Source: Acidimicrobiia bacterium (lineage in GTDB: Bacteria; Actinomycetota; Acidimicrobiia; Acidimicrobiales; JANYDT01). From it: DNA of 64,000 bases. Below, piece after piece: positions 1 to 52,897 of this stretch. The notes below the pieces were generated by a model that saw nothing but the letters and a program-made list of their open reading frames with translations, was not told where the DNA came from and ran no database searches. A program made the translations under genes and the position numbers. Positions within the stretch are counted from its first letter, which is position 1. Every line of letters starts with the position of its first letter. The stretch covers positions 4,883-68,882 of the forward strand of contig JANOYY010000037.1 of NCBI GenBank assembly GCA_031429095.1. Reading direction: 5' to 3'.

Positions 1-1804
1 GTCGATGCCCGCAGGCGACGACTGCCGCGGCGGCGATGGTGGAACTGGCGGCGCTGAAGCGGTCTTCGACCTCGACGGTGCCGGGGCTGACCCGGCGAAG
101 AATCGCGCGCTTATGAAGTGTGATGCCGCGACCGTGGAGCCTGTTCTGTGACGGCGCAAGGTCACCGGAAAGCGCGAGCTTTTCGCCGACCAGCAGGTCC
201 GGCGTGATCAACGTGACGTGATGCCCGTGGTCGGCCAACCACTCCGCCATCGCGATTGCGATTGGACCTCCGATGGGATCCCACACGGCGATGGGCCCGT
301 CGGGGAGCACCGCGCCGCCGAGCGCTTCGACATCGTGCATTACGACTGCGTCGGGGTCGACGTGAAACGGGAGCGGCCCCGAAACGCCGCCCGTCGCCAC
401 AATCGTGGGGCCGTTCGCCAACTCACTAGCGGAAACGCCGAACTCGAACGTGACGCCGAGCGCGATGCACTGCGACTCCAACCAATCGGCCGAAAGTGCA
501 AGACGCTCGCGTCCTGTCGCCACCGCGGCCGTGCGTACGACGCCACCCGCCTGACTACTACGTTCACGTATGGTCACCCGCCAGCCCTGGCGGGCTGCGA
601 CACGTGCTGCCTCCATGCCAGCCACGCCAGCTCCGATAACCGTGACCGTGCCTCGAGAGCCAGCCGCCAAGGGAACACCCTCAGCGGCGTCGTCGAGCTC
701 GTGGCCGGTCCGGGGATCCATGACGCAGGTGATGATCGGATTGCGGTTGTCGCGGACCTTGCAGGTCTGGTTGCACAACAGACACGGACGTATGGCCGCC
801 ATCGAATCGGTGCGCAGCTTCGACACCAGATCGGCCTCGGCGAGTTGGGCACGGGTCATTTCGACGGCGTCGCACGCACCGTCACCGATCGCCCATTCCG
901 CCTGACCCCAATCTACGATCGAACCCTGGGCCACGACCGGTACCGTGATCGACGCAGCGCGAAGCCCGTCACGAATCTGGCGGGCCAGACCGATGTTGAA
1001 CCCGGGCTCCACATGCATATCCGGTTGCGTCGCCGCTGATGTGTAGATGGCCCCGCGCACGACCGTGACCAGGTCGACGCCCAACGGGGCCAGCGCAGTG
1101 GCGACGTCGACCGCAGCTTCTGGGGTGACGCCCGCCCACGGCGCCAACTCGTCGCAGCTCAATCGGACAGCGAGGACCGCATCACCAATCGCAGAACGAA
1201 CTCCGGTGAGTACTTCGCGCGCAAAGCGCAGCTTGTCTTCCCCATACGCGTCGCCCCGCATGTTGGTAAGTCCACTGATGAATTGTCGAATGAGTGAGAA
1301 CTGGCCGATGTTGATCTCGACGCCGGCGAGCCCCGACTCAACCGCCGAACGCGCAGCGGCGACAAAGCCGCCCACGACCGCGTCGATATCGCGCTGCTCC
1401 ATGATCTTGGGCACTTCGCGAGTCGCGACCTCGGGAACGGGCGACGGTGCCCACAACACACCCTGGCTCCAATGAGACGTGCCCTGACCGCCACTGTGGC
1501 CCAGCCCGGCCAGCACCACACACGCCGGTGAGACGGCACGAATGGCGTCGCCGACGCCACGCCAGCCGGGACCACATCGCGAGGCGAGCGGCGCTCGCTC
1601 GTAGGGCCAGTCGCTCTCGTGCACGGACGCGATCTCGGTGACCACAATCCCCGCGCCACCCGCCGCTCGTCGCGCATAGAACGCCACGTGTGCCGGCGAC
1701 AGCGAACGGCCCGATCCCAGGTTCGTTTCCATAGGCCCGAACATCACCCGGGACGGTAATGACAGCCCCGAGGGCCCAATACGCAAAGGCTCCAACAGCT
1801 TCAT
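1..1804 (-). CDS. FadH/Old-Yellow-Enzyme family NADH:flavin oxidoreductase (2,4-dienoyl-CoA reductase-like); 3' end lies outside the window
   Basis: My translation of the minus strand from ATG at 1804 gives MKLLEPLRIGPSGLSLPSRVMFGPMETN... (OYE TIM-barrel N-terminus), CLLCNQTCKVRDNRNPIITC (FadH-type Fe-S cysteines) and VTVIGAGVAGMEAARVAA (dinucleotide fold). It is absent from the ORF track because no stop falls in the window. ATGA start/stop overlap with the upstream gene. Confidence 0.85.
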   Translation of the reverse strand, partial: MKLLEPLRIGPSGLSLPSRVMFGPMETNLGSGRSLSPAHVAFYARRAAGGAGIVVTEIASVHESDWPYERAPLASRCGPGWRGVGDAIRAVSPACVVLAGLGHSGGQGTSHWSQGVLWAPSPVPEVATREVPKIMEQRDIDAVVGGFVAAARSAVESGLAGVEINIGQFSLIRQFISGLTNMRGDAYGEDKLRFAREVLTGVRSAIGDAVLAVRLSCDELAPWAGVTPEAAVDVATALAPLGVDLVTVVRGAIYTSAATQPDMHVEPGFNIGLARQIRDGLRAASITVPVVAQGSIVDWGQAEWAIGDGACDAVEMTRAQLAEADLVSKLRTDSMAAIRPCLLCNQTCKVRDNRNPIITCVMDPRTGHELDDAAEGVPLAAGSRGTVTVIGAGVAGMEAARVAARQGWRVTIRERSSQAGGVVRTAAVATGRERLALSADWLESQCIALGVTFEFGVSASELANGPTIVATGGVSGPLPFHVDPDAVVMHDVEALGGAVLPDGPIAVWDPIGGPIAIAMAEWLADHGHHVTLITPDLLVGEKLALSGDLAPSQNRLHGRGITLHKRAILRRVSPGTVEVEDRFSAASSTIAAAAVVACGHR

Positions 1805-2844
1805 AACTGGATGTCGGTGCCGCTTACGCCGTAGGTGTCGGGCAGCACGTATCCCTCCGGGTACGGATCGGTGGGGTCAACGAACAACTGCGTGATTCCG
1901 GTAATCCACGCGCTACCCCGTATGGCGGGGAGGATGGCAGCCTTTCCGCCGACGGTCGTCGCCGCAGTGATGCGGCCATCGAAGGTCGAACCGATCGCCG
2001 ACGCGTGTGTCATGGTGTCGCCAACCTTCATTAGTCCGCGCGCATACAACGACGCCATTCGCGCCGAGAGGCCGGTGCCGGTGGCGCTGCGGTCGAGACG
2101 TCCGGGTGACACTACAACGGCATTGCGAGTTACCTTCCCAACGCCCTCCCACGGTGCAGCGATTTGTACGATTGAGACCCCGGCAATGCCGGGGTTCTCG
2201 GGATGTGCGCACGGCAACTGCTCCCGAGCGGCCAGACGGATCTTCTCACCGACCACCGAAAGCTCGCGCGCCTCACTCGGCTCAATCGCGAAGCCCAACG
2301 CCTTCGCGTCAGCAATGGCGTACCACATGCCCCCATAGGAAACATCAACGGTGATCGTGCCCAATCCCTCGACCTCAAGGGGTGCATCGAGACGATCCGC
2401 AAAGCACGCAACGTTGGTGAACTCGACGCTCTCGCATCGACCATTGCGACACCGCGCCCGTGCCTCAACGACGCCGCCGGGCGCTTCGAGTCGGACGATG
2501 GTTTCGGGTTCCGTCATCGTGACCATACCGGTCTCGAGAAGCACGGTCGTGGTCGCAATCGTGTTGCTTCCCGACATCGCCGCGTATTCGGTCGGCTCCA
2601 TAATGATGAACCCGGCGTCGCACTCCAGGCGCTTTGACGCGACGATCAAATTGGCATGACAGGCCACGCTGCCACGGGGCTCGCGGAGCAACAGGCGACG
2701 CAACCACTCGCCCTCTCGCTGCATCGTCTGCATCTGGTCGAAGACCGTGTCCCCGGCAAAGGGCAAAACGCCACCGGTGACGACATTGCCGATCTCCCCA
2801 CCAGCATGACAACCCACAACCGTAATGGCTCGCCTCGTTTGCAT
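1801..2844 (-). CDS. Proline racemase / hydroxyproline epimerase / 3-hydroxyproline dehydratase family protein, Ser/Thr active-site variant
   Basis: C-terminal 347 aa of the 502-aa track ORF: MQTRRAITVVGCHAGGE..., MSGSN (first catalytic position is Ser), DRSATGTG (second catalytic position is Thr). Start placed at ATG 2844. The upstream in-frame extension runs through a simple repeat and looks non-native. Confidence 0.85.
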   Translation of the reverse strand: MQTRRAITVVGCHAGGEIGNVVTGGVLPFAGDTVFDQMQTMQREGEWLRRLLLREPRGSVACHANLIVASKRLECDAGFIIMEPTEYAAMSGSNTIATTTVLLETGMVTMTEPETIVRLEAPGGVVEARARCRNGRCESVEFTNVACFADRLDAPLEVEGLGTITVDVSYGGMWYAIADAKALGFAIEPSEARELSVVGEKIRLAAREQLPCAHPENPGIAGVSIVQIAAPWEGVGKVTRNAVVVSPGRLDRSATGTGLSARMASLYARGLMKVGDTMTHASAIGSTFDGRITAATTVGGKAAILPAIRGSAWITGITQLFVDPTDPYPEGYVLPDTYGVSGTDIQL

Positions 2845-2971
2845 GAGTTGCGACGTTAGCCGGAGGCACGAACACACGACGAAGACGACGAAGACAAAGA
2901 CAACGAAGACGACGAAGACGACGAAGAGGTTGCAGGCGCTGGGCCGGGCTAACGTCATAGGTGATGTCTGA
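2843..2971 (+). CDS. Speculative 42-aa small ORF (Thr/Lys repeat peptide) occupying the position where mftA is expected
   Basis: ATG 2843 to TGA 2969-2971 gives MSCDVSRRHEHTTKTTKTKTTKTTKTTKRLQALGRANVIGDV. The stop overlaps the mftB start (ATGTCTGA). No similarity to the canonical MftA C-terminus (..CGVY). Composition is dictated by the repeat. Confidence 0.15.
   Translation: MSCDVSRRHEHTTKTTKTKTTKTTKTTKRLQALGRANVIGDV
2876..2926. repeat. Imperfect tandem repeat, 9-nt unit ACGACGAAG (5 nonamers plus one hexamer ACAAAG)
   Basis: Read directly: acgacgaag acgacgaag acaaag acaacgaag acgacgaag acgacgaag. Lies in the divergent intergenic region between the racemase-family gene and mftB. Confidence 0.85.
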
Positions 2972-3242
2972 ACTCCCCCTCGATCCCGCCGGTGTCTACC
3001 GCGTGCACGAAATGGTTGCGGTGCGCCCCGAACCATTCGGTGCTCTCGTCTACCACTACGGAAATCGCAGGTTGGTGTTCCTGAAGAACCATCGCATCGT
3101 GGCGGTCGTGAACAGCCTCGATGGTCAAGCCACGATCGCCGACGTCCTCGACGCCAACAACGTGCCCGTAGCGTCACGTCCGAATTATCTAAGTGCACTT
3201 CATTCTCTTCTGAAGTCCGACATGCTGGAGGTACCGGCCTGA
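2961..3242 (+). CDS. mftB: Mycofactocin biosynthesis chaperone MftB (PqqD-like RRE protein)
   Basis: VAVRPEPFGALVYHYGNRRLVFLKN motif typical of MftB. The stop overlaps the mftC start (TGATG at 3240-3244). The start may be ATG 2964 rather than GTG 2961. Confidence 0.85.
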   Translation: MMSELPLDPAGVYRVHEMVAVRPEPFGALVYHYGNRRLVFLKNHRIVAVVNSLDGQATIADVLDANNVPVASRPNYLSALHSLLKSDMLEVPA

Positions 3243-4375
3243 TGACAGCTCTTGTTGAACAACTCAAGGGTGGGCTCGACGCTCCCATCTGCCTGACCTG
3301 GGAGCTCACCTACGCGTGCAACCTGGCGTGCATTCATTGCCTGTCTTCGAGTGGACGTCGCGATCCGCGTGAGTTGACCACTGCCGAGTGCAGGGCCGTA
3401 GTCGACGAACTCGCCCGGATGCAGGTTTTCTACGTCAACATCGGCGGCGGCGAACCGACGATTCGTTCCGACTTCTTCGAAATCATCGAATACTGCGTGG
3501 CCAACGGTGTCGGTGTGAAGTTCTCCACCAACGGCAGCCGTATAGATGCGAATGCAGCGAAACGCCTTAGCGGTACGGACTACATCGACATTCAGATCAG
3601 CCTCGATGGAGCCGATCGCGAAACGAACGACGCGGTTCGCGGCGAAGGGTCGTGGGATAGCGCAATCGCGGCGATGGACCACCTAGCGGCGGCCGGCTTC
3701 GGACAGTTCAAGATCAGCGTGGTGATGACGCGCCACAACGTGAGCCAACTCGACGAGTTTGAGGCGCTGGCCAGCAAGTACGGAGCCGAGCTGCGCCTCA
3801 CACGTCTGCGTCCCGCGGGCCGCGGCGCCGACACGTGGGATCAGCTGCATCCCACCAACGCGCAACAGCGCGAGCTCTACAACTGGATCATCAAGCGTCC
3901 GAATGTGTTGACCGGCGATTCGTTCTTTCACCTGAGCGCACTCGGGGAGTCGCTGCCCGGCCTCAACCTCTGCGGCGCGGGTCGCATCGTATGTTTGATC
4001 GATCCGGTGGGCGACGTCTATGCGTGTCCGTTCGTGTTGCACGACGAGTTTCGCGCCGGCAGCGTTCGCGACGACGGCGGCTTCAAAAAGGTGTGGAGCG
4101 AATCGGACCTGTTCGTGTCGCTGCGCGAGCCACAGTCGGCCGGCGCTTGTGCGAGTTGCGGTTCCTTCGACGCCTGCCAGGGCGGTTGTATGGCCGCAAA
4201 GTTCTTCACCGGTTTGCCCCTCGATGGGCCCGACCCGGAATGTGTCTGGGGCAACGCCGACGACGAGCTCGCTCGAATCGCTGCAGCATCACCTCCGGTC
4301 GACAAACCCAATCCGGGGCCCGGGCACTCCAAGCCGGTGCCCGTGACCATCGGCCGCAAGTCTGTTTCCGTTTAG
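3242..4375 (+). CDS. mftC: Mycofactocin radical SAM maturase MftC (radical SAM/SPASM)
   Basis: GLDAPICLTWELTYACNLACIHC (CxxxCxxC), MQVFYVNIGGGEPT, CGAGRIVCLIDPVGDVYACPF, CASCGSFDACQGGCMAAKFFTGLPLDGPDPEC. Collinear with mycobacterial MftC as I recall it. Confidence 0.93.
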   Translation: MTALVEQLKGGLDAPICLTWELTYACNLACIHCLSSSGRRDPRELTTAECRAVVDELARMQVFYVNIGGGEPTIRSDFFEIIEYCVANGVGVKFSTNGSRIDANAAKRLSGTDYIDIQISLDGADRETNDAVRGEGSWDSAIAAMDHLAAAGFGQFKISVVMTRHNVSQLDEFEALASKYGAELRLTRLRPAGRGADTWDQLHPTNAQQRELYNWIIKRPNVLTGDSFFHLSALGESLPGLNLCGAGRIVCLIDPVGDVYACPFVLHDEFRAGSVRDDGGFKKVWSESDLFVSLREPQSAGACASCGSFDACQGGCMAAKFFTGLPLDGPDPECVWGNADDELARIAAASPPVDKPNPGPGHSKPVPVTIGRKSVSV

Positions 4376-4402
4376 CCCTATTGCGTTTAGCCCGGTCCAG
4401 CC

Positions 4403-5056
4403 ATGAACTCCGATGCCGACGTCGAACACGACGACGCTGGCCAAACCGACGAAGGTGCGCGTCGCCGCAAGCGTACGAATGCGTACGTAACGATGTGGGC
4501 TATTTCGGTTGACCTTGGCGCCGTGCCGGTTCCGCTGACCAGCGAGGTCGCGATCCCTTCGCTCGACGCAGTGACCGGTCGAGCGAAGGCGCTGGCGCTG
4601 TGTTCGCTGAAGGGACAGGGCCTTACCCAGTTTGAAGTCTTCGCATTCGCCGACGCGTATGAGGTCTGGGACCACCTGACTATCGCGGAGAACGACTACA
4701 TCCTCGATCCTTCTCCGTCGTCCGACGCCGATACGAACAATGCTTGGCGCTACGAGGGTCTGAAGGTGTTGGAGTGGTGTCTCGCTCTGGTGCCCCATCT
4801 CGGCTTTCCTGACAAACCCGGTGACTCGGGAGCGGCGATCAAGATCTGCATCGAAGAGCTTTGTGTCGCGACCGGTACCTCGCCGCAGCTTCGTCCGGTC
4901 AAGGAGTTGCTCGACGCCGCCGACGTCGCTCGTTGCCTGAACGTGGTGGCCCGTGCTCTGGCGCAAAGTGGCGCGGCAATGCCCTCGGGTCTGCACCCCG
5001 GCGTCGCCCATGAACGCGATGCGGTCTTTGCCTGGCTGCTCGCTCAGGGCATGTAA
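4403..5056 (+). CDS. Hypothetical protein, possibly DUF4272-like
   Basis: 217-aa ORF starting 27 nt after mftC. The WRYEGLKVLEWCLALV...LGFPD pattern and the length resemble DUF4272 as I remember it. No catalytic motif recognised. Confidence 0.5.
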   Translation: MNSDADVEHDDAGQTDEGARRRKRTNAYVTMWAISVDLGAVPVPLTSEVAIPSLDAVTGRAKALALCSLKGQGLTQFEVFAFADAYEVWDHLTIAENDYILDPSPSSDADTNNAWRYEGLKVLEWCLALVPHLGFPDKPGDSGAAIKICIEELCVATGTSPQLRPVKELLDAADVARCLNVVARALAQSGAAMPSGLHPGVAHERDAVFAWLLAQGM

Positions 5057-5173
5057 GTACCCGCATCCATGATCGACTGGTCGAAATCGCCGAGGCGTAC
5101 CTGGCCACAACGGGCCTGAGGTCCCCAGAAGTCGAAACTCAAGATTCCGTTCCTCGCAGTCGATACATCCGCA

Positions 5174-6709
5174 ATGGATCGGAGGGTTCTCTTGACGCGG
5201 CGTCGCCCGGATCCGTTGGTGACCCACGACGCCGACACAGAACCTGCGATCGGCGACCCGGAGATCACCGAAGCTCCTGCTTCCAGCAAGGCTGCGTCGA
5301 TTGGCGATGAGTTTGTGACCCCGACGCCCCAAGAGATGGCTGAGCTTGTGTTCGCGAGACGCCGCATCGGAAAACGTCGACGCTCGGAAATTCTGCGCGA
5401 ACTCGAGATCGGCAGCGGCGTCGACGCATTGGGCTACAACTTCCATGAGGCGCCCAGCGAACTTGTCGGCACCCAGTGTGTGCGCAGGTCCTTTCATGCG
5501 CTTCTTGCGCTCGCCGCGCTCGCCCTTTTCAGCGGCGTCCTCTACCGGCAAGATCGCGGCGGATATGCCCTTGAGCTGTGGGTAACTCTGCCCGACATAG
5601 CGCTCGTGGCGTGCGCTGCGCGTTACGGACCCTCGGCCTTCGGACGAGTCCAACGGTTTCGGGCCACGACGCTAACGACCGGCGGTGTCCTTCTCGTCGT
5701 GGCATTGGCGGTGAGCTTCGTTGTTCACCCCTCCGCGCGGGGTGTGTTCGTTCTGGTGCGCTTACTCGGAGCAGTTGGTGTTGCCGATCGGCTCCAACGT
5801 GCCAATCGAGCGGAGATCCGGCGGGCGGTGCAAGTCCTCTTCTGCGTCGCCGGCTTCAGCATCATGTTCGCAGTGCTGCAACACGCTCGGGGTTCGGCGC
5901 TGGGGTTGTACGCCTTGGGCGAGCGGGCGGAGCCGTTCTTTCATTTCGGCGACAACCTCGTCCCCTCAGCGTTTCTCGGACACCCCTATCCCTTGGGTGG
6001 CGCTGCGCTGATCGCGTCGTCTCTCGCTGTCGCGTTGGTTCTGTCCGGTCGTTTGCAGGCTCCGTGGCTCTATGTCGCTGGAGCGCTCGCCGGCTTTTCC
6101 TCTGTGTTCAGCGCATCTCGGACGAATGTGCTCGGCCTCTGTTTGTTCGCCGCAACGGTCATTTTCGGCGCAGCCCGAAGGGCGCCATTGCGGGCATTGT
6201 TGTTTGCCGCCGTCGTGGCGGCCGCGGCGAGCGCCGGGTACCTTGCCAATCCTCACATTTGGTCCTCGAAATCGCAGGCCTACAAAGCTGAGGGCGACGT
6301 GAGCGCGGGGCGGGTCGGCCTCTTCAAGGAAAACGTTGCGATGGTGACGCGCCATCTTCCGTTCGGTGTCGGTCCGGGGCGCTACAACATTGAACTGAAG
6401 AACGACGGAATCACACAGAGCACCGGGTTCGCGCACCCGCCGCAAGTTGTCGCCATGGCTGCTCTTGCTGAAGGCGGCATCCCTGCTGGTTTCGCGCTCC
6501 TCATCATCGGAGGTTCATTTGTCGGCCTGGCGCGACGTCGACGATTCGCCGCCTTCGTACCCGTGGCCGCGCTGGTCGCACCGCTGTTCAGCGACCATTA
6601 CATGTGGTCTGGTGCTGAGGGAATGGCGCTCGTGGCGATTGGCTTCGGTGTTTCGATGCGCTTGTCACGCGAAGCGAACGTTCGCGAGCTTCTCCCCGCC
6701 GCCCGGTAA
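5174..6709 (+). CDS. O-antigen ligase/polymerase (Wzy_C) family polytopic membrane protein
   Basis: Multiple TM segments. SASRTNVLGLCLFAATVIF and GRVGLFKENVAMVTRHLPFGVGPGRY resemble Wzy_C-domain motifs. Confidence 0.6.
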   Translation: MDRRVLLTRRRPDPLVTHDADTEPAIGDPEITEAPASSKAASIGDEFVTPTPQEMAELVFARRRIGKRRRSEILRELEIGSGVDALGYNFHEAPSELVGTQCVRRSFHALLALAALALFSGVLYRQDRGGYALELWVTLPDIALVACAARYGPSAFGRVQRFRATTLTTGGVLLVVALAVSFVVHPSARGVFVLVRLLGAVGVADRLQRANRAEIRRAVQVLFCVAGFSIMFAVLQHARGSALGLYALGERAEPFFHFGDNLVPSAFLGHPYPLGGAALIASSLAVALVLSGRLQAPWLYVAGALAGFSSVFSASRTNVLGLCLFAATVIFGAARRAPLRALLFAAVVAAAASAGYLANPHIWSSKSQAYKAEGDVSAGRVGLFKENVAMVTRHLPFGVGPGRYNIELKNDGITQSTGFAHPPQVVAMAALAEGGIPAGFALLIIGGSFVGLARRRRFAAFVPVAALVAPLFSDHYMWSGAEGMALVAIGFGVSMRLSREANVRELLPAAR

Positions 6710-6768
6710 CCTGCAGATCAAAGCGACTCGACGGAAACGACGTCAAGACGCGCAAAAGGAGCCTCGCC

Positions 6769-7905
6769 GTGCAAACTCGAGTATGCGACATGTTGGGCAT
6801 TGAATTCCCGATTTTGGCCTTCAGCCATTGTCGCGATGTTGTTGCGGCGGTCTCGAAGGCCGGTGGCCTCGGCGTCCTCGGCGTGACTGCTCACACGCCA
6901 GAGCAGCTCGAGATCGACTGCGCCTGGATTGAAGACGAGATCGGTCCGAACCGGGGCTACGGCATCGACGTGCTGATCCCCGCGAAATACACCGGCTCCG
7001 ACGAAGGTGGCCTGACCAAAGAACGACTCGAGCCGATGATTCCGCCGGAACACCGTCAGTTCATGACCGAGTTGCTGGCCCGTTACGACGTCCCGCCACT
7101 CCCCGAGGGCGAAAAGGCTCGCAGCGGTGAGGGCACATGGTCGCACAAAGGTGCGCAACCACTCGTCGATATCGCGCTCGCCCACAAGATCCGACTGATC
7201 GTGAATGCGCTGGGCCCGGCACCGGTGGATCTCGTGACCAACGCCCACCGCAACGACGTGTTGGTTGCCGCTCTGGTCGGCACCAAGGTGCATGCGGAGC
7301 GTCAAAAGAACAATGGCGTCGACCTCATCGTCGCGCAGGGCTACGAGGCGGGGGGACATACGGGAGAAATCGCCACCATGGTGCTCATCCCCGAAGTGGT
7401 CGACGCCGTCGCAGGCACACCAGTCCTTGCGGCGGGCGGCATTGGACGGGGACGTCAGATTGCGGCGGCAATGGCTCTTGGCGCGGAAGGCGTGTGGACG
7501 GGCTCGGTCTGGCTCACCACCGAGGAGGCAGAAACCCATCCCGTGGTGAAGAAGAAGTTCCTCACGGCAACGTCGTCGGACACCGTGCGTTCACGGGCCA
7601 GCACGGGCAAGCCTGCCCGCCAGCTTCGTACGGCCTGGACCGACGAGTGGGAAGCGGAAGCGAACCCGAAGCCGCTCGGAATGCCGCTTCATGGCATGTT
7701 GATCGCGGAAGCCCAGCAGCGCATCGCTCGATCAGCGAACACGCCGAACTCGGGCGCTGAGCGTTTGGTGAACTACTTCGTCGGTCAGATCGTTGGAACC
7801 ATGAATCAGGTCAAGCCGGCACGGCAGGTGGTGTTCGAGATGGTCGATGAATATCTCGACGTGGTTCGCCGTCTCGCCCACGGGCTCGAAGGTGCCGGGG
7901 CCTAG
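6769..7905 (+). CDS. Nitronate monooxygenase (NMO / 2-nitropropane dioxygenase) family FMN enzyme
   Basis: MLGIEFPILAFSH, GYEAGGHTG, VLAAGGIGRGRQIAAAMALGAEGVWTGS. AAGGAG Shine-Dalgarno about 7 nt upstream of GTG 6769. Confidence 0.85.
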   Translation: MQTRVCDMLGIEFPILAFSHCRDVVAAVSKAGGLGVLGVTAHTPEQLEIDCAWIEDEIGPNRGYGIDVLIPAKYTGSDEGGLTKERLEPMIPPEHRQFMTELLARYDVPPLPEGEKARSGEGTWSHKGAQPLVDIALAHKIRLIVNALGPAPVDLVTNAHRNDVLVAALVGTKVHAERQKNNGVDLIVAQGYEAGGHTGEIATMVLIPEVVDAVAGTPVLAAGGIGRGRQIAAAMALGAEGVWTGSVWLTTEEAETHPVVKKKFLTATSSDTVRSRASTGKPARQLRTAWTDEWEAEANPKPLGMPLHGMLIAEAQQRIARSANTPNSGAERLVNYFVGQIVGTMNQVKPARQVVFEMVDEYLDVVRRLAHGLEGAGA

Positions 7906-9124
7906 CATCTTGGGTCGTCGGAAGGCTTGTTTTCGCCAACGCGCGCAAACGGTCGTAGTCGGTCTTGGGTTCGCTGGAGTCTTGGGGTTGGGCGGAACCC
8001 TGGGGACTCAATCAGCCAACGCACAGAATGCGTCGTACCCGGCCGGTCCGCCCGTCAAGCTCTCGTTGGTCGCGACCGCGAGTCAACCGATCGGTGTCTA
8101 TGGGCGCCGCGGTGACGACCGACCGTACGTGATCGAGAAAGCCGGCCGTATACGGATACTTCAGGGGGCGACCTGGGGTCCGACCGCCCTCGATATCCGC
8201 GACCGGGTATCGGTCGACAACGAACGTGGATTGTTCGCGATGGCGTTCCACCCGGCAGATCCGACCCGGTTGTTCGTGAGTTACGCAGCGCTCGATGGGG
8301 CACTCATGTTGAGCGAGTTCACCATGGGGGAAATCGTTGCCGACGCTGCGTCGGAGCGAGTCCTGTTGCGGATACCTCACCCCAACAATGATCACTATGG
8401 CGCTGCGCTGCTCTTCGACAAGTCCCGCCACCTGTTGTTCTCGACGGGCGATGGTGGCGGAGTCGGAACAAAGGGCGGTGTTGGTGACAAACCCAACAAC
8501 GCCCAGAACCGAAACGTGCTGCTCGGCAAAATACTTCGCATCGATCCCAGCGCAGAAGATACGCGTGCCTATCAAATTCCGATTGATAACCCGTTCGTGA
8601 GCGGGCGGACGCAGTCGGGAACCTCCTCGCAACCTGCGGCGCCGGAGGTATGGGCGTATGGTCTGCGCAATCCGTGGCGGATGACCCTCGCTGCCGATGG
8701 TTACCTTTGGGTCGCCGACGTCGGCCAGGCTTCATGGGAGGAGATCAACCGTGTGCCGATCACCAAACCAGCGGTCGACTTCGGATGGCGGCTTCGGGAA
8801 GGTATGCACGCATATCGTGGTGGCAGAAAGCTACCCGAGACCACTGATCCGATCTTTGAGTTCGCGCATACGGGTGGCCGATGCGCTGTTATCGGCGGAG
8901 TGGTGGTCGACGATCGAGCGGCTCTCCCGGCACTCATCGGGCGCTATCTCTTCGGCGAGGTGTGTTCGGGCCGCATCGCCGCCCTGACCGTTTCAGGATC
9001 ACGAGCCCAGGCCGTCGACCTGGGGGACCGGACGGCCTACCTGACGTTTCTTGGCGCGGGACCCGACGGCAGGGTCTACGCGACGAGTCTCAATGGCGGC
9101 GTGTATCGCCTTGAGCCCGCCTAA
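7847..9124 (+). CDS. PQQ-dependent sugar (glucose/sorbosone) dehydrogenase family protein, secreted
   Basis: HPNNDHYGAALLF, STGDGGG, NAQNRNVLLGKILRIDP, AYGLRNPWR, VADVGQASWEEIN. Signal-like N-terminus. An alternative TTG start at 7910 would remove the 59-nt overlap with the previous gene. Confidence 0.8.
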   Translation: MNISTWFAVSPTGSKVPGPSILGRRKACFRQRAQTVVVGLGFAGVLGLGGTLGTQSANAQNASYPAGPPVKLSLVATASQPIGVYGRRGDDRPYVIEKAGRIRILQGATWGPTALDIRDRVSVDNERGLFAMAFHPADPTRLFVSYAALDGALMLSEFTMGEIVADAASERVLLRIPHPNNDHYGAALLFDKSRHLLFSTGDGGGVGTKGGVGDKPNNAQNRNVLLGKILRIDPSAEDTRAYQIPIDNPFVSGRTQSGTSSQPAAPEVWAYGLRNPWRMTLAADGYLWVADVGQASWEEINRVPITKPAVDFGWRLREGMHAYRGGRKLPETTDPIFEFAHTGGRCAVIGGVVVDDRAALPALIGRYLFGEVCSGRIAALTVSGSRAQAVDLGDRTAYLTFLGAGPDGRVYATSLNGGVYRLEPA

Positions 9125-9131
9125 ACCTCGC

Positions 9132-9440
9132 CTAAACCGGGTCGACCAACTCCAATGTGACGTCGACCGCCGAACCAGCGCCGAGTCCCTCACTCGTTCG
9201 GACCTGCTTCTTTACGGGAAGTATGTACGCTTTTCTTTTTGAGTCCGGGAATACCGACGTGTTCCACGATGTCGCCCCGATGGTTACCCGTACGCGGACC
9301 GATCCGAAGCCGCGTCGGGTCAGCGATGTCAGTTCCTCGATCTCATCGGATTGATCGTCGGGAACCGTGAAGAAGAACCACGAGGTGGGTCCCTCGTATT
9401 CCCACAGATGTGCGTGAAACCGATACTGCTTCACGGTCAA
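9132..9440 (-). CDS. DUF1905 domain-containing protein
   Basis: WFFFTVP..., GFGSVRVRVTIGATSWNTSVFP..., ILPVKKQVR is typical of DUF1905. 4-nt overlap with the upstream RDD gene. Confidence 0.75.
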   Translation of the reverse strand: MTVKQYRFHAHLWEYEGPTSWFFFTVPDDQSDEIEELTSLTRRGFGSVRVRVTIGATSWNTSVFPDSKRKAYILPVKKQVRTSEGLGAGSAVDVTLELVDPV

Positions 9441-10309
9441 CGCTTCAGCTGTTTCGCCTCGACCAGCAGTTCGAGGAAGCGCTCGTTGGAAAGAGTCGGA
9501 TGAACGCCTTGGACGCGGGGGCGCAACTTCGCCGCAAAATCATCGGCGATCTTGGTGCGGGCGTCGGTAGCAAGTGAGTTCCGCCGAGCTAAGAATTGGC
9601 GCACGATTGCCACGTCGTTGCGCGTAATGCCAACGACGTCCCAGGTGGCAAGTTCGCTTCTTGCCGCCTCCGAGAGCGTCACCGAAAAGTCATCAGGAGA
9701 CGAAACCGGTATGCCGAGAGGACCCAGCGGCGCGTTGGTGAACTGCACCTGCTTCTTCTTTGCCGCGCTCTCACGTCGCTTCAAGCTTGCGGGCTCCACG
9801 ATGACGATCGTGCCTGCCGCAAGGTCGCCAAGCCGCTGCGACCGACTGCTCGTCAAGATGGCGGTGATTCCGATGATGTACCCAAAGGGCATGAAGTCGA
9901 CAATGCGAACGAGATTTCGCACCAGAATCTGACGTGTTGATGCAGGCGAACCTTGATCGCTCACGACGCGCAGGCCGGTGATTCGTTTCCCCAGGGTGCG
10001 GCCCTTGAACAGCGCTTCGCAGAGTGCGAAGTAGAAAAAGATCACGAGGAAGACGCTCACGACGACGAATGCTGACCCCAGGCCGCCGTCTTGAAACGAT
10101 CCTTGGGATGTCGCGCTGACGATGGCGACGAGCATCGCTTGAACAAGAGCGTCTATGACGGCGCCGAAGGCACGCGAACCTAACCCGGCAATCGTGACTT
10201 CGAAGCCAACACCTTCGGGCGTCCGCAACATCGTGCGATCGGAGTCGTACGATCGAGTTGTGGAGCGAGCCACCTGGGTTGTTGTCGGCGGAGGAGGGGC
10301 ATCAATCAT
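9437..10309 (-). CDS. RDD family membrane protein
   Basis: GLGSRAFGAVIDALVQ and GRTLGKRITGLRVV motifs with TM segments. Confidence 0.75.
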   Translation of the reverse strand: MIDAPPPPTTTQVARSTTRSYDSDRTMLRTPEGVGFEVTIAGLGSRAFGAVIDALVQAMLVAIVSATSQGSFQDGGLGSAFVVVSVFLVIFFYFALCEALFKGRTLGKRITGLRVVSDQGSPASTRQILVRNLVRIVDFMPFGYIIGITAILTSSRSQRLGDLAAGTIVIVEPASLKRRESAAKKKQVQFTNAPLGPLGIPVSSPDDFSVTLSEAARSELATWDVVGITRNDVAIVRQFLARRNSLATDARTKIADDFAAKLRPRVQGVHPTLSNERFLELLVEAKQLKR

Positions 10310-30410: not shown

Positions 30411-31229
30411 TCACCCGAGGCGGGCCTGAGTCCGCAACGCCTGTTCAACGAGTGCCGTGAACCCTGCGGCTGACGATGCGTGCGCGCCGTGGGTCGCGTC
30501 GGGGATCATTTCGAGCGCGACACGTGTATTGCCGGCCGCTCGTAGCATCGAGGCGACCTCAGTGGCGGATCGCTGCTGGTGCGGAAGCGATTTTGCGCCA
30601 CAGCCGATGACCGTCGGGCAGGTGATGCGCACTGGATCGTAAGGACAACCGCCATCTCGCAGGCCGGAGAGGTCGAGCAGGAGCGCCGTGCCCTCGGCGC
30701 GTCGCGCCGCTTGCGTCTCCTCGCCGAGCATGGCCCACACGCGATCACCGACGATTCGTCGCATGAACGATTCGGCTGCAGCTTCAGGACCGCCATCGGA
30801 ACCTGCGGCAATCGTCGAACCGCCCGCCGTGCTCGGCCACCAGTCGGTCCACGGCATCGGCGCCTCGTAGACGACGAGTGACTTGACCAACTCGGGGTTC
30901 TGGTCCGCAAGGCAGAGCGCGACGACGCCTCCGTAGCTATGCCCGACGAGCGTGGAGGGGGTGTGACCGACGACCCAACGGAGATCGTCCACGTGGTCCT
31001 GCAGCGACGTTGCTGGCGGCATCGAGTTCAATGACCGCGAATATCCGCGCCGATCATATGCGACAGTCGTATGTGTACTGAGGAATTTCCGAACTCGGAC
31101 AAAGCTCGTATGACGGTCCATTGCGCCGTGAATGAATACGAGTGTTTCGCCCGACCCTCCGGGTCGGGTGTCGACAAATACTTCACCTGTTGAAGAGGGC
31201 ACCTGGGCATTCAAGCACCAAAACGACAC
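30411..31229 (-). CDS. Alpha/beta hydrolase
   Basis: LVFIHG, nucleophile elbow GHSYGG, C-terminal His region (PDATHGAH). Confidence 0.75.
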   Translation of the reverse strand: MSFWCLNAQVPSSTGEVFVDTRPGGSGETLVFIHGAMDRHTSFVRVRKFLSTHTTVAYDRRGYSRSLNSMPPATSLQDHVDDLRWVVGHTPSTLVGHSYGGVVALCLADQNPELVKSLVVYEAPMPWTDWWPSTAGGSTIAAGSDGGPEAAAESFMRRIVGDRVWAMLGEETQAARRAEGTALLLDLSGLRDGGCPYDPVRITCPTVIGCGAKSLPHQQRSATEVASMLRAAGNTRVALEMIPDATHGAHASSAAGFTALVEQALRTQARLG

Positions 31230-51241: not shown

Positions 51242-52897
51242 ATGAGCGGTAACCACGCCAACGAAACGAAGCGGGTGCTCGGAGCACTCGCCACCCAAGG
51301 TCGTGCCGTGGATATTTACGACACCACCTTGCGCGACGGGTCGCAACAAGAGGGTCTGTCGCTGACGGTCGACGACAAGTTGCGCGTCGCCGAACAGCTC
51401 GATCACCTCGGCGTGAAGTTCATTGAAGGCGGCTGGCCGGGCGCCAATCCAAAGGACTCCGAGTTCTTCCGACGGGCCGCGGCTGGCGAGTTGCAGCTCC
51501 AGACCGCCACGTTGGTGGCCTTTGGCATGACCCGACGCCCGAACGGCAGCACTACCGACGACAAGGTTTTGCGTGAGCTCCTCGACGCGCAGACCGAAGC
51601 CATTTGCATGGTGGCGAAGTCCTGGGACTACCACGTCACCCACGCGCTGCAAACTGATCTCGACGAAGCAGTACGTATGGTTAGTGACTCCGTGAAGTTT
51701 CTCCGCAGTGAAGGGCGTCGGGTCTTCCTCGACGCCGAGCACTTCTTCGATGGATACACCCGCAACCCCGATTTCAGCATGCGGGTATTGAGCGCGGCCG
51801 AAGAGGCTGGTGCCGAAGCGCTCGTGTTGTGTGATACCAACGGCGGCATGCTTCCCCATCAGGTCGCTGAAGTGGTTGAGCAAGTTCGTGCACGTACCTC
51901 TGCACAGCTCGGTGCGCACTTTCACAACGACTCGGGCTGCGCGGTAGCAAACACGCTCACCGCAGTGCAGTACGGGATCAAGCAGGTGCAGGGCTGCGTG
52001 AACGGTTACGGCGAACGTACTGGCAACGCCGATTTGACTTCCCTCGTGCCCAACATGGCGCTCAAAATGGGGATGGAGACGCTGCCCGAGGGCCGCCTGG
52101 AGCGGATCACCGTGGTGGCGCATCACATTGCCGAGATTGTGAACCAGACGCTGCCCTCGCAGCGTCCCTACGTGGGAGCAAGCGCCTTCGCCCACAAGGC
52201 AGGATTGCACACGAGTGCGATTGCGCGAGCCCGTGACGCCTACGAACACATCAGCCCCGAGCTTGTCGGAAACGGCACTCGTTTTGTGGTGTCGGAGATG
52301 GCCGGTCGCTCCACTATCGAGTTGAAGGCGAAGGAGATCGGCTTGAATCTCGAGGGTTCGTCGATGACGCACATTCTCGACACGCTCAAGCGACTCGAAT
52401 ACGAGGGCTACCACTTCGAAGTTGCCGACGCATCCCTCGAACTGTTGCTGCGCGAGTCCACCGGCTGGCGTCAGGACTTCTTCGAGCTGGAGTCGTTCCG
52501 GGTGATCACTGACCAGGTAGGCGGCGACCTCGACGCTAAAACGGAAGCCACGGTGAAGGTGTGGTTCCCGGGCATCGAGACCGAAGGCGTCGAACGCACC
52601 CGCGTGATCGCCACCGGCGAAGGCAACGGTCCCGTTAACGCACTCGACCGAGCTTTCCGTGCAGCAGTTGGTGATCGCTATGGAGCGTTGTCGTCGATCC
52701 ATCTGACTGACTACAAGGTTCGAGTGCTCGACTCGTCGAAGGGTACCGACGCGAAGACACGTGTGCTTATCGATTCGACCAACGGTGAGAAGGATTGGTC
52801 AACGATCGGGGTAAGCGCCAACGTGATCGAAGCATCATGGATGGCCCTCAAAGACGCCCTGGTATACGGCCTCCTCCACGCTCCGACGTCGAAGTAG
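51242..52897 (+). CDS. cimA: Citramalate synthase (2-isopropylmalate synthase/homocitrate synthase family)
   Basis: IYDTTLRDGSQQEGLSLTVDDKLRVAEQLDHLGVKFIEGGWPGANPKD, HFHNDSGCAVAN and a C-terminal LeuA-dimerisation-type domain. AAAGGA Shine-Dalgarno. The Ile-rich leader upstream fits an Ile-pathway role. Confidence 0.82.
   Translation: MSGNHANETKRVLGALATQGRAVDIYDTTLRDGSQQEGLSLTVDDKLRVAEQLDHLGVKFIEGGWPGANPKDSEFFRRAAAGELQLQTATLVAFGMTRRPNGSTTDDKVLRELLDAQTEAICMVAKSWDYHVTHALQTDLDEAVRMVSDSVKFLRSEGRRVFLDAEHFFDGYTRNPDFSMRVLSAAEEAGAEALVLCDTNGGMLPHQVAEVVEQVRARTSAQLGAHFHNDSGCAVANTLTAVQYGIKQVQGCVNGYGERTGNADLTSLVPNMALKMGMETLPEGRLERITVVAHHIAEIVNQTLPSQRPYVGASAFAHKAGLHTSAIARARDAYEHISPELVGNGTRFVVSEMAGRSTIELKAKEIGLNLEGSSMTHILDTLKRLEYEGYHFEVADASLELLLRESTGWRQDFFELESFRVITDQVGGDLDAKTEATVKVWFPGIETEGVERTRVIATGEGNGPVNALDRAFRAAVGDRYGALSSIHLTDYKVRVLDSSKGTDAKTRVLIDSTNGEKDWSTIGVSANVIEASWMALKDALVYGLLHAPTSK

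Follow-up and report, generated by a model that had tools for sequence, protein, structure and literature searches.

A mycofactocin mftB-mftC pair very probably served by a precursor gene encoded in trans in an uncultured Acidimicrobiia lineage

The canonical mycofactocin cluster, mftA-mftB-mftC-mftD-mftE-mftF, is that of Mycobacterium (Rv0691A-Rv0696; Haft 2011, PMC3023750; pathway PMC11778925), and the pathway steps referred to here are those summarised in PMC11778925. A partial mft gene set has been described in Herbiconiux sp. L3-i23, in which loss of mftB, mftC and mftE has been reported (PMC11778925). Evaluating a 64-kb stretch of DNA from an uncultured Acidimicrobiia bacterium (hereafter the window, meaning that whole stretch), we found mftB directly 5' of mftC, as expected for mycofactocin biosynthesis, and a spacer without mftA ahead of them (Table 1). 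We consider the window very probably to carry one half of a split, otherwise ordinary mycofactocin pathway, and the locus is a rearrangement of a known pathway and not new chemistry.

Table 1. Annotated features around mftB and mftC in the window, numbered from its first nucleotide.
Feature	Position	Strand	Remarks
trans-3-hydroxy-L-proline dehydratase-like gene, proline racemase family	1801-2844	-	NF047722, 419 bits
Divergent intergenic spacer between dehydratase-like gene and mftB	2845-2963		119 nt; without mftA
Tandem repeat, 9-nt unit ACGACGAAG/GAAGACGAC	2876-2927		6.1 copies; Tandem Repeats Finder score 76
mftB, RRE-type peptide chaperone	2964-3242	+	ATG 2964; alternative start GTG 2961
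mftC, radical SAM/SPASM maturase	3242-4375	+	TIGR03962 match
DUF4272 gene	4403-5056	+	27 nt after mftC; PF14094

Both maturation proteins proved to be as canonical as the original prediction had them. MftB scores 99.3 bits against TIGR03967 (cut-off 33) in a profile search and is also matched by PF26520 (MftB_chaperone), MftC scores 622.2 bits against TIGR03962 (cut-off 265) with 1-338 of the 339 profile positions covered, and the mftB stop overlaps the mftC start in a TGATG at 3240-3244. Setting the threshold for a conserved column at 95% or more among canonical homologues (15 columns in MftB, 172 in MftC), we found that the clade of the window keeps 15/15 in MftB and 170/172 in MftC, the exceptions being L216I and V249I; replacements specific to the clade were not found at conserved positions. 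Within this clade dN/dS ranges from 0.02 to 0.09 in MftC and from 0.09 to 0.31 in MftB (at dS of 0.6-1.7), and both proteins are under strong purifying selection; its MftCs, all linked to a DUF4272 gene, form an exclusive monophyletic clade of normal branch length in which no rate acceleration was seen. The idea that the pair acts on a non-canonical peptide, one of three explanations first offered for the missing precursor, finds no support in this retention of conserved columns at an unaccelerated rate. On these sequence grounds mftB and mftC are predicted to be intact and functional, and the conservation of MftC residues suggests that decarboxylation and cross-linking of the MftA Val-Tyr would take place here too. 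A search for a solved MftC structure on which substrate-contact residues could be mapped returned none, the best match being a PqqE, to which we return below.

The gap ahead of mftB had been described as an empty mftA slot, and of that description the absence stands while the setting does not: the gap is a divergent spacer leading to a minus-strand gene, not an operon-internal position. Profile positions 1-340 of NF047722 align from the first residue of the dehydratase-like protein, that is from ATG 2844, which we take on this alignment to be the true start. Translating the gap reproduced the three earlier frame readings exactly and confirmed that none of them has a GVY terminus. One is an acidic frame, PEARTHDEDDEDKDNEDDEDDEEVAGAGPG*, spanning 2860-2952, in which no ATG, GTG or TTG, and no CTG or ATN, occurs after the TAG at 2857-2859; another, from ATG 2843, encodes MSCDVSRRHEHTTKTTK…VIGDV* (42 aa, or 48 aa from the in-frame ATG at 2825). 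Scanning the gap against Rfam gave no family, and a search of it for a sigma-70-like promoter or a terminator gave no match. Its conservation with sister taxa (L007, L087) is confined to about 25 nt at the mftB start and a part over the dehydratase start. These sister taxa carry an unrelated secreted-protein gene directly 5' of mftB, traces of which were sought and not found; another relative (L093) has a 0.55-kb stretch without a called gene in that position, and in more distant clade members (L008, L089, L091, L109) the position is taken by other genes or sequence. Across the window, L007, L008, L087 and L091 there is no conserved small ORF upstream of mftB. A 'VIGDVY*' that overlaps the mftB start in L087 was considered as a Val-Tyr terminus and rejected, because it has no start codon and arises from mftB codons 2-4.

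The peptides that can be read from the gap are dominated by its tandem repeat, which is trinucleotide-periodic, (GAM)n, and slippage-prone. Among near-identical metagenome contigs its length differs by +3, -24 and -33 nt in relative terms, and two scaffolds carry N gaps at the repeat site. One mark of a simple-sequence contingency (phase-variable) locus, a promoter or 5'-region repeat that is polymorphic in copy number within the population, is present here; such a locus would also switch a flanking gene's expression with copy number, and the gap gave no promoter-like match. The repeat unit is not present in L007, L008, L087 or L091, and no further copies were found in relatives. Reading this repeat in its three frames yields the acidic, Thr-Lys and Arg 'peptides', none of which is a gene. 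We weighed two proposals to the contrary. The first, which we regard as highly improbable, is that the repeat is coding, either as the 42/48-aa Thr-Lys ORF (2825/2843-2971) or as a hydrophobic (VVF)n N-terminal extension of the dehydratase-like protein from a minus-strand ATG at 2958. Both frames are open, and in three window-type contigs (L001-L003; 386, 377 and 374 aa) the longer minus-strand ORF was the one called, running through the repeat to the upstream ATG. Every observed length variant is also a multiple of 3, as it would be on a coding frame, but this is explained by the trinucleotide periodicity of the repeat. Conservation of either ORF is lacking in L007, L087 and L093, the dehydratase orthologues of L004, L087 and L093 are 347 aa long, and the family profile aligns from ATG 2844; no family matches the Thr-Lys ORF, and its …GDV end lacks the Tyr that MftC requires.

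To the second proposal, which sees in the acidic frame (2860-2952, …DEDDEEVAGAGPG*) an mftA that has decayed or diverged while still in the ancestral slot, we give scarcely any credence, although several of its properties are suggestive. The frame ends 8-11 nt 5' of the mftB start, its acidity resembles that of MftA leaders, its 'EEV' is like the 'EE[IV]' ahead of the MftA core, and tandem repeats are frequent in the MftA leaders of other loci. The frame, however, holds none of the usual start codons, and it is acidic because it reads the repeat as GAA/GAC, in a number of copies that is not constant from one assembly to another. This position is occupied by the unrelated secreted-protein gene in L007 and L087 and by the uncalled stretch in L093, conservation being limited to some 25 nt at the mftB start; no tblastn match with MftA was obtained, and adjacency of mftA and mftB had already been lost at the base of the clade (L089, L109). 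The frame was also aligned to mftA 3' ends from 40 loci, and we set it aside as showing 'EEV'-level likeness alone and no evidence of homology. The relic named in the original prediction is therefore best read as the start-less repeat frame that it appears to be.

We then looked for mftA beyond the gap. A six-frame scan for VY or IY termini was applied to the 64-kb window and to all the loci; in the window it returned one unrelated match (30899-31081) and none MftA-like, so that the precursor is missing from the window as a whole. In tblastn searches of the window, MftA, MftD, MftE and MftF all went unrecovered, with matches at chance level except for 45 residues of FMN barrel over which MftD matched an NMO-like gene. 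The same four genes were not found in L001-L008 either. Among 78 other relatives, mftA (…EEISIDGMCGVY) lies directly 5' of mftB in 76, and the remaining 2 loci are cut by contig ends, leaving 76 informative canonical relatives. The contrast between these (76/76 with adjacency) and the distinct loci of the window clade (0/8) exceeds chance.

Canonical mftA genes were nevertheless found in the clade, at a distance from mftB. L089 and L109 have it next to mftF, at a distance of 5.6 kb on the upstream side of mftB, and a JGI contig (Ga0654605_0000149; 78,928 nt) carries mftB-mftC-DUF4272 at ~6.5-7.9 kb and mftA at 52,167-52,295, ~44 kb apart on the same contig. A sister-species MAG carries mftBC on one contig (JANOWU010000316.1, L007; its MftC 97% identical to that of the window) and mftA with mftF on another (JANOWU010000015.1, L102), a linkage that depends on MAG binning, which can err. 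In each of the three metagenome assemblies that contain the window's population (ERZ27315200, ERZ27315198, ERZ28573533), a window-type mftBC contig (L002, L003, L001) occurs along with an orphan mftA-mftF contig (L099, L100, L101), and identity among these orphan contigs is 99.8-99.9%. Trans-locus MftA scores 44.1 bits against TIGR03969 (cut-off 25), and with TIGR03965 (cut-off 280) MftF reaches 450.5 bits in L099 and 454.5 bits in L102; no MftB or MftC was found within ±10 kb of the orphan mftA loci. Tetranucleotide correlation with the window is 0.985 for L099 and L101, the two compared, a value that favours a link but does not discriminate, L091 and L102 being about equal, and no contig physically joining an L099-type mftA to the window's mftBC was seen. 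From co-occurrence in assemblies, composition, synteny and the binning of the sister MAG, we infer that the L099-type mftA contig probably belongs to the window's own genome. Canonical mftA occurs in trans in every clade member for which enough sequence is available, and the explanation that mftA is encoded elsewhere is the one that held up, with canonical MftA beside mftF on separate contigs of the sister MAG and of those three assemblies. With a canonical mftA found elsewhere in the clade, the locus is, in the terms set beforehand, very probably an ordinary split cluster.

The gene behind mftC sets the clade apart. PF14094 is recorded for the window protein and for all 59 homologues, and a DUF4272 gene lies directly 3' of mftC in all clade loci examined (the window, L007, L008, L087, L089, L091, L093 and L109) versus 0/78 canonical loci: it is a clade-specific operon partner of mftBC. 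Its dN/dS is 0.09-0.28, and its AF2 model is all-alpha with a pLDDT of 91.8. Foldseek with this model against the PDB gave no fold match (best E 1.3, TM at most 0.24), and a literature search on DUF4272 function found no paper. In several clade members, genes for an OYE/TMADH-like flavoprotein and ETF also accompany mftBC-DUF4272.

This tight coupling of a clade-specific DUF4272 to mftC is among the points that would favour an orphan maturase pair, that is, an organism without mftA whose MftB and MftC were recruited to another substrate, for example one encoded near DUF4272. So is the absence of mftA from -8.6 kb (L001) to +60 kb around mftBC, as is that of mftD (TIGR03966) and mftE (TIGR03964), neither of which tblastn found in the window or the clade loci fetched. 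We nonetheless hold such a pair to be very unlikely, given the trans mftA of the clade members, the conserved columns kept without acceleration in MftB and MftC, and the lack of a conserved small ORF upstream of mftB in the loci compared. A different reading accepts the trans mftA and supposes that the pathway has been rewired, with DUF4272 as a factor and with MftE and/or MftD replaced; taken jointly, these propositions seem to us unlikely. The trans locus has a YpfJ-family Zn-peptidase and an MBL-fold hydrolase beside mftF, and no mftE. Under rewiring, mftA would be expressed from this mftF locus along with the two enzymes, either of which would replace MftE non-orthologously, a non-orthologous FMN enzyme would replace MftD, and the DUF4272 protein would act in maturation as an accessory factor not described before.

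Returning to the split but ordinary pathway, the substrate of the mftB and mftC products would be the canonical 39-residue MftA (MGNTEIKPTENNDTVAAVEIDDEELLIEEISIDGMCGVY), supplied in trans from a second locus where mftA adjoins the mftF glycosyltransferase gene in divergent orientation. As in the established pathway, MftA would be translated at that distant locus and its leader then bound by MftB, the C-terminal Tyr would be oxidatively decarboxylated by MftC and cross-linked to Val, and later steps, including MftF, would complete the cofactor. As to history, ~6 kb of genes may have been inserted between mftA and mftB in the clade ancestor, a state kept in L089 and L109, with DUF4272 becoming fixed directly behind mftC and the mftA and mftBC halves coming to lie tens of kb apart in the window subclade. 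The 119-nt gap would be a divergent promoter/5'-UTR spacer, left once the sequence seen in sister taxa, including the small secreted-protein gene 5' of mftB, was lost.

For genome mining, this locus illustrates that MftB and MftC without MftA can reflect where one looks: RiPP precursors can sit tens of kb from their maturases, and window-limited scans therefore over-call orphan maturases. It also marks out a natural lineage whose mycofactocin precursor is genetically uncoupled from MftB/MftC, with DUF4272, a conserved protein travelling with the maturase, as a candidate extra biosynthetic factor, and with the clade genomes as a set for asking whether the lineage does without MftD and MftE or has replacements for them. 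The locus by itself implies no new chemistry.

Among known systems, PqqD/PqqE with pqqA (PQQ) is alike in pairing an RRE chaperone and an rSAM/SPASM maturase on a short precursor, and PqqE is the best solved-structure relative of the window MftC (6c8v, E 5e-15); it belongs to another family, however, and the window MftC falls below the cut-off of the PqqE model TIGR02109 (104.1 vs 381 bits). With the canonical mycofactocin cluster the clade shares MftA, MftB, MftC and MftF above the NCBIfam equivalog cut-offs, an identical MftA core and the same mftB/mftC stop-start coupling, whereas its mftA lies beside mftF, 5.6 kb to >44 kb from mftB, a DUF4272 gene follows mftC, the Zn-peptidase and MBL hydrolase stand beside mftF in place of mftE, and neither mftD nor mftE was found in the fetched neighbourhoods. 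The canonical Acidimicrobiia mftABC loci (L009-L086) are of the same lineage, with MftCs 67-75% identical, and they too are often without mftD/E/F within 6 kb, so that dispersed mft genes are normal in the class; unlike the window clade, all informative loci among them have mftA adjoining mftB and none has DUF4272. Herbiconiux sp. L3-i23 is alike in that mft sets can fragment and mftA can persist apart from mftB/C, but its reported losses of mftB, C and E mean that the pathway is decaying there, whereas mftB and mftC of the window are intact and under purifying selection.

The gap between the dehydratase-like gene and mftB holds no mftA. Retranslation returned exactly the three frames of the original prediction: an acidic frame (PEARTHDEDDEDKDNEDDEDDEEVAGAGPG, then a stop) without an ATG, GTG, TTG, CTG or ATN codon, a frame from the ATG at 2843 (with a further in-frame ATG at 2825) ending in …VIGDV and a stop, and an Arg-rich frame. 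A six-frame scan of the whole 64 kb for MftA-like VY/IY termini gave one unrelated match, and tblastn with queries from a complete Acidimicrobiia cluster found no MftA, MftD, MftE or MftF in the window, so the predicted absence of mftA from gap and window held; the rest of the window carries ordinary metabolic and transport genes. The context had been overlooked, as the dehydratase-like gene starts at its ATG at 2844 and 2845-2963 is thus a divergent intergenic spacer, with no empty operon slot. No Rfam family or promoter- or terminator-like site was found in this gap. MftB and MftC are canonical, as had been claimed, both exceeding their NCBIfam cut-offs, and the mftB stop overlaps the mftC start as TGATG (sequence of 2400-4500).

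Scanning GTDB species genomes with MftC yielded 80 loci, among which the nearest relatives of this Acidimicrobiia MAG lineage were L007 (sister species; 97% identical) and L008 (86%), all others being at most 75% identical. Canonical mftA (…EE[IV]SIDG[MI]CGVY, then a stop) lies directly upstream of mftB in 76 of the 78 more distant loci, the remaining two being cut by contig ends, and no mftA was found upstream of mftB in L001-L008. Even at canonical loci mftD, mftE and mftF are frequently missing within 6 kb, so that scattered mft genes are the norm for this class; the distinctive feature here is the lost mftA-mftB adjacency. Several canonical MftA leaders (L011, L057, L058, L083, L085) carry short tandem peptide repeats (e.g., VDAEPVDAELVD, LIDNELLIDNELL, KVHEHDKVHEHD), and this region seems generally prone to repeat expansion. 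Four Acidimicrobiia-like mftABC loci (L020, L021, L033, L058) have GTDB records titled Gammaproteobacteria or Bifidobacterium, likely through mis-binning or mislabelling of the MAGs.

Among relatives, mftA was recovered away from mftB. L089 is a contig of 591 kb with an MftC 82% identical to the window's; there, a canonical mftA (…EELLIEEISIDGMCGVY) adjoins mftF 5.6 kb upstream of mftB, and a second MAG contig (L109) has the same layout: one strand carries Zn-peptidase, MBL hydrolase, mftF and histidine phosphatase, followed on the other strand by mftA, acyl-CoA ligase, DinB, two acyl-CoA dehydrogenases, MarR, mftB, mftC, DUF4272 and an OYE-like flavoprotein. The L089 MftA as query led to a 42-aa MftA on JGI contig Ga0654605_0000149 (78,928 nt), which also bears a DUF4272 homologue; its MftC is 92% identical to the window's, the dehydratase, flavoprotein and Wzy_C synteny around its mftBC matches the window, and its mftA adjoins mftF ~44 kb from mftBC-DUF4272. 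The two halves, mftA-mftF and mftBC, are physically joined in these relatives.

A profile search with this MftA subfamily returned P0096 (MGNTEIKPTENNDTVAAVEIDDEELLIEEISIDGMCGVY), encoded on JANOWU010000015.1, from the same MAG as L007 (JANOWU010000316.1), and on contigs of ERZ27315200, ERZ27315198 and ERZ28573533, the assemblies of the window-type contigs L002, L003 and L001. These three mftA contigs are mutually 99.8-99.9% identical (cf. 99.4% for window and L001) and differ by ~22% from the sister-MAG version, and in tetranucleotide composition the orphan mftA-mftF contigs L099 and L101 each correlate with the window at 0.985 (0.99 for the L001 control). The trans-locus MftA scores 44.1 bits (equivalog cut-off 25) and its neighbouring MftF 450 bits (cut-off 280), and neither MftB nor MftC occurs in the 10 kb on either side at the orphan mftA loci. 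Since mftBC-only and mftA-mftF-only contigs lie in the same assemblies or MAG, two complementary orphan halves co-occur. The best explanation, which we consider very probable, is a mycofactocin cluster that has been split, MftA being provided in trans; the original prediction is thereby partly supported, only in its branch placing mftA elsewhere.

Its second branch, in which mftA decayed and left the acidic frame as a relic, is not supported: loss of mftA-mftB adjacency dates back to the base of the clade, in the sister taxa L007 and L087 the place just upstream of mftB is taken by a gene for an unrelated secreted repeat protein, and spacer conservation is limited to ~25 nt beside the mftB start. 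The short gap of the window would be a lineage-specific deletion, now host to a repeat. In L087 the secreted protein has 192 aa, a signal peptide and 'ANKARREATY'-like repeats; its L007 counterpart is an uncalled ORF, and the gene is absent from the window's species. An apparent Val-Tyr terminus in L087 (VIGDVY, then a stop) was rejected as a coincidence of mftB codons 2-4 without a start codon.

The third branch, in which MftB/MftC act on a non-canonical peptide, and likewise decay of the pair, are argued against by how the two proteins have evolved. Of the alignment columns with 95% or higher conservation in canonical homologues, the clade retains 15/15 in MftB and 170/172 in MftC (changes L216I and V249I). 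Nei-Gojobori dN/dS among window, L007 and L008 is 0.02-0.09 for MftC, 0.09-0.31 for MftB and 0.09-0.28 for DUF4272 (dS 0.6-1.9 over the three). Neighbour joining of 84 MftCs places the seven DUF4272-linked ones in an exclusive clade with ordinary root-to-tip length (0.124 vs 0.135). In L008, a ~54-nt tandem duplication crosses the mftB/mftC junction; the ATG of the first copy hits a stop, and MftC apparently starts at a TTG in the second.

The spacer repeat, which has equivalents in L001-L005, is a real, slippage-prone polymorphism that also disrupts assemblies: among six public contigs encoding an identical MftC, spacer differences from the window (+3, -24, -33 nt) all fall inside it, and two scaffolds have N gaps at exactly this site. 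Because the unit consists of GAA/GAC triplets, its length always changes by multiples of three, translation of the forward frames gives Glu/Asp, Thr/Lys and Arg, and that of the dehydratase-phase reverse frame gives (VVF)n. Gene calls in three contigs stretch the dehydratase ORF across the repeat (386, 377 and 374 aa, with 27-39 extra (VVF)n codons; orthologues in relatives have 347 aa).

Features of the window and of compared loci
Feature	Locus	Position	Strand	Remarks
Trans-3-hydroxy-L-proline dehydratase-like protein	window	1801-2844	minus	family profile aligned from residue 1 (ATG 2844)
Tandem repeat	window	2876-2927		9-nt unit, 6.1 copies (Tandem Repeats Finder)
mftB	window	GTG 2961 / ATG 2964 to 3242		TIGR03967, 99.3 bits (cut-off 33; NCBIfam scan)
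mftC	window	3242-4375		TIGR03962, 622 bits (cut-off 265; NCBIfam scan)
DUF4272 gene	window	4403-5056		directly after mftC
DUF4272 gene	clade relatives	L007 7148-7804; L008 6218-6856; also L087, L089, L091, L093, L109		
Flavoprotein/ETF/FixABCX regions	clade and window-type (L001) loci	L089 10615-19294; L091 10662-19145; L087 1-4708; L109 17705-19687; L001 5283-7205		
Nitronate-monooxygenase-like protein	window and L091	window 6769-7905; L091 4975-6087		
Zn-metallopeptidase/MBL-fold hydrolase	mftF-mftA loci	L099 6332-9931; L102 (JANOWU010000015.1) 6344-9931; also L092, L094, L095, L109		
Alcohol dehydrogenase	orphan mftA loci	L099 1-666; L092 2307-3440; L095 1404-2543		
mftB-mftC-DUF4272	Ga0654605_0000149	about 6.5-7.9 kb		
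mftA	Ga0654605_0000149	52,167-52,295		
mftB/mftC junction duplication	L008	5030-5110		
Secreted protein upstream of mftB	L087 and L007	L087 7934-8512; L007 about 4970-5480		

DUF4272 stands directly behind mftC only in the window's group and in no canonical locus; in most clade loci the two genes overlap by 4 nt or are no more than 27 nt apart (325 nt in L091). We found 59 homologous proteins, and all four traced to contigs directly follow mftB-mftC. Its invariant motifs are RRRKRT, LKGQGL and FAFADAY, and its AF2 model is confident (pLDDT 91.8) and all-alpha, with no fold match when searched against the PDB and an empty literature search. Several clade members carry OYE/TMADH-like flavoprotein and ETF/FixABCX genes after DUF4272, which may form a redox link for mycofactocin where no MftG is seen; the flavoproteins have 635-660 aa, some also matching Pyr_redox-type domains. 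A nitronate-monooxygenase-like FMN protein lies near mftBC in two divergent clade members (the two copies are 81% identical) and matches the MftD model TIGR03966 weakly (23.8 bits, cut-off 471).

The clade loci that were fetched yielded neither mftD nor mftE. Where canonical loci include mftF, its neighbour is usually mftE; in the clade, mftF-mftA instead lies next to genes for a Zn-metallopeptidase of the YpfJ/KPN_02809 family and an MBL-fold hydrolase, both present in no canonical locus, and this arrangement may reflect a non-orthologous substitution for the peptidase MftE. An alcohol dehydrogenase 6-9 kb from orphan mftA, 50-53% identical to NDMA-dependent ADH (Rxyl_3153 family, TIGR03989), may be a mycofactocin-dependent redox partner. 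The mftD/mftE result, the mftF neighbours, DUF4272 and the flavoprotein/ETF genes are compatible with a pathway re-wired through non-orthologous replacements but do not demonstrate one.

Following the steps summarised in PMC11778925, MftB would bind the MftA leader, MftC would decarboxylate and cyclise the C-terminal Val-Tyr, MftE would free the cyclised core (AHDP), MftD would deaminate it and MftF would glycosylate the product. This is a known pathway in an unusual gene arrangement: the short peptide ORF was noted always to fall within neighbourhoods that the MftC, MftB and MftF families define (Haft, PMC3023750), and here it stays with the MftF family only.
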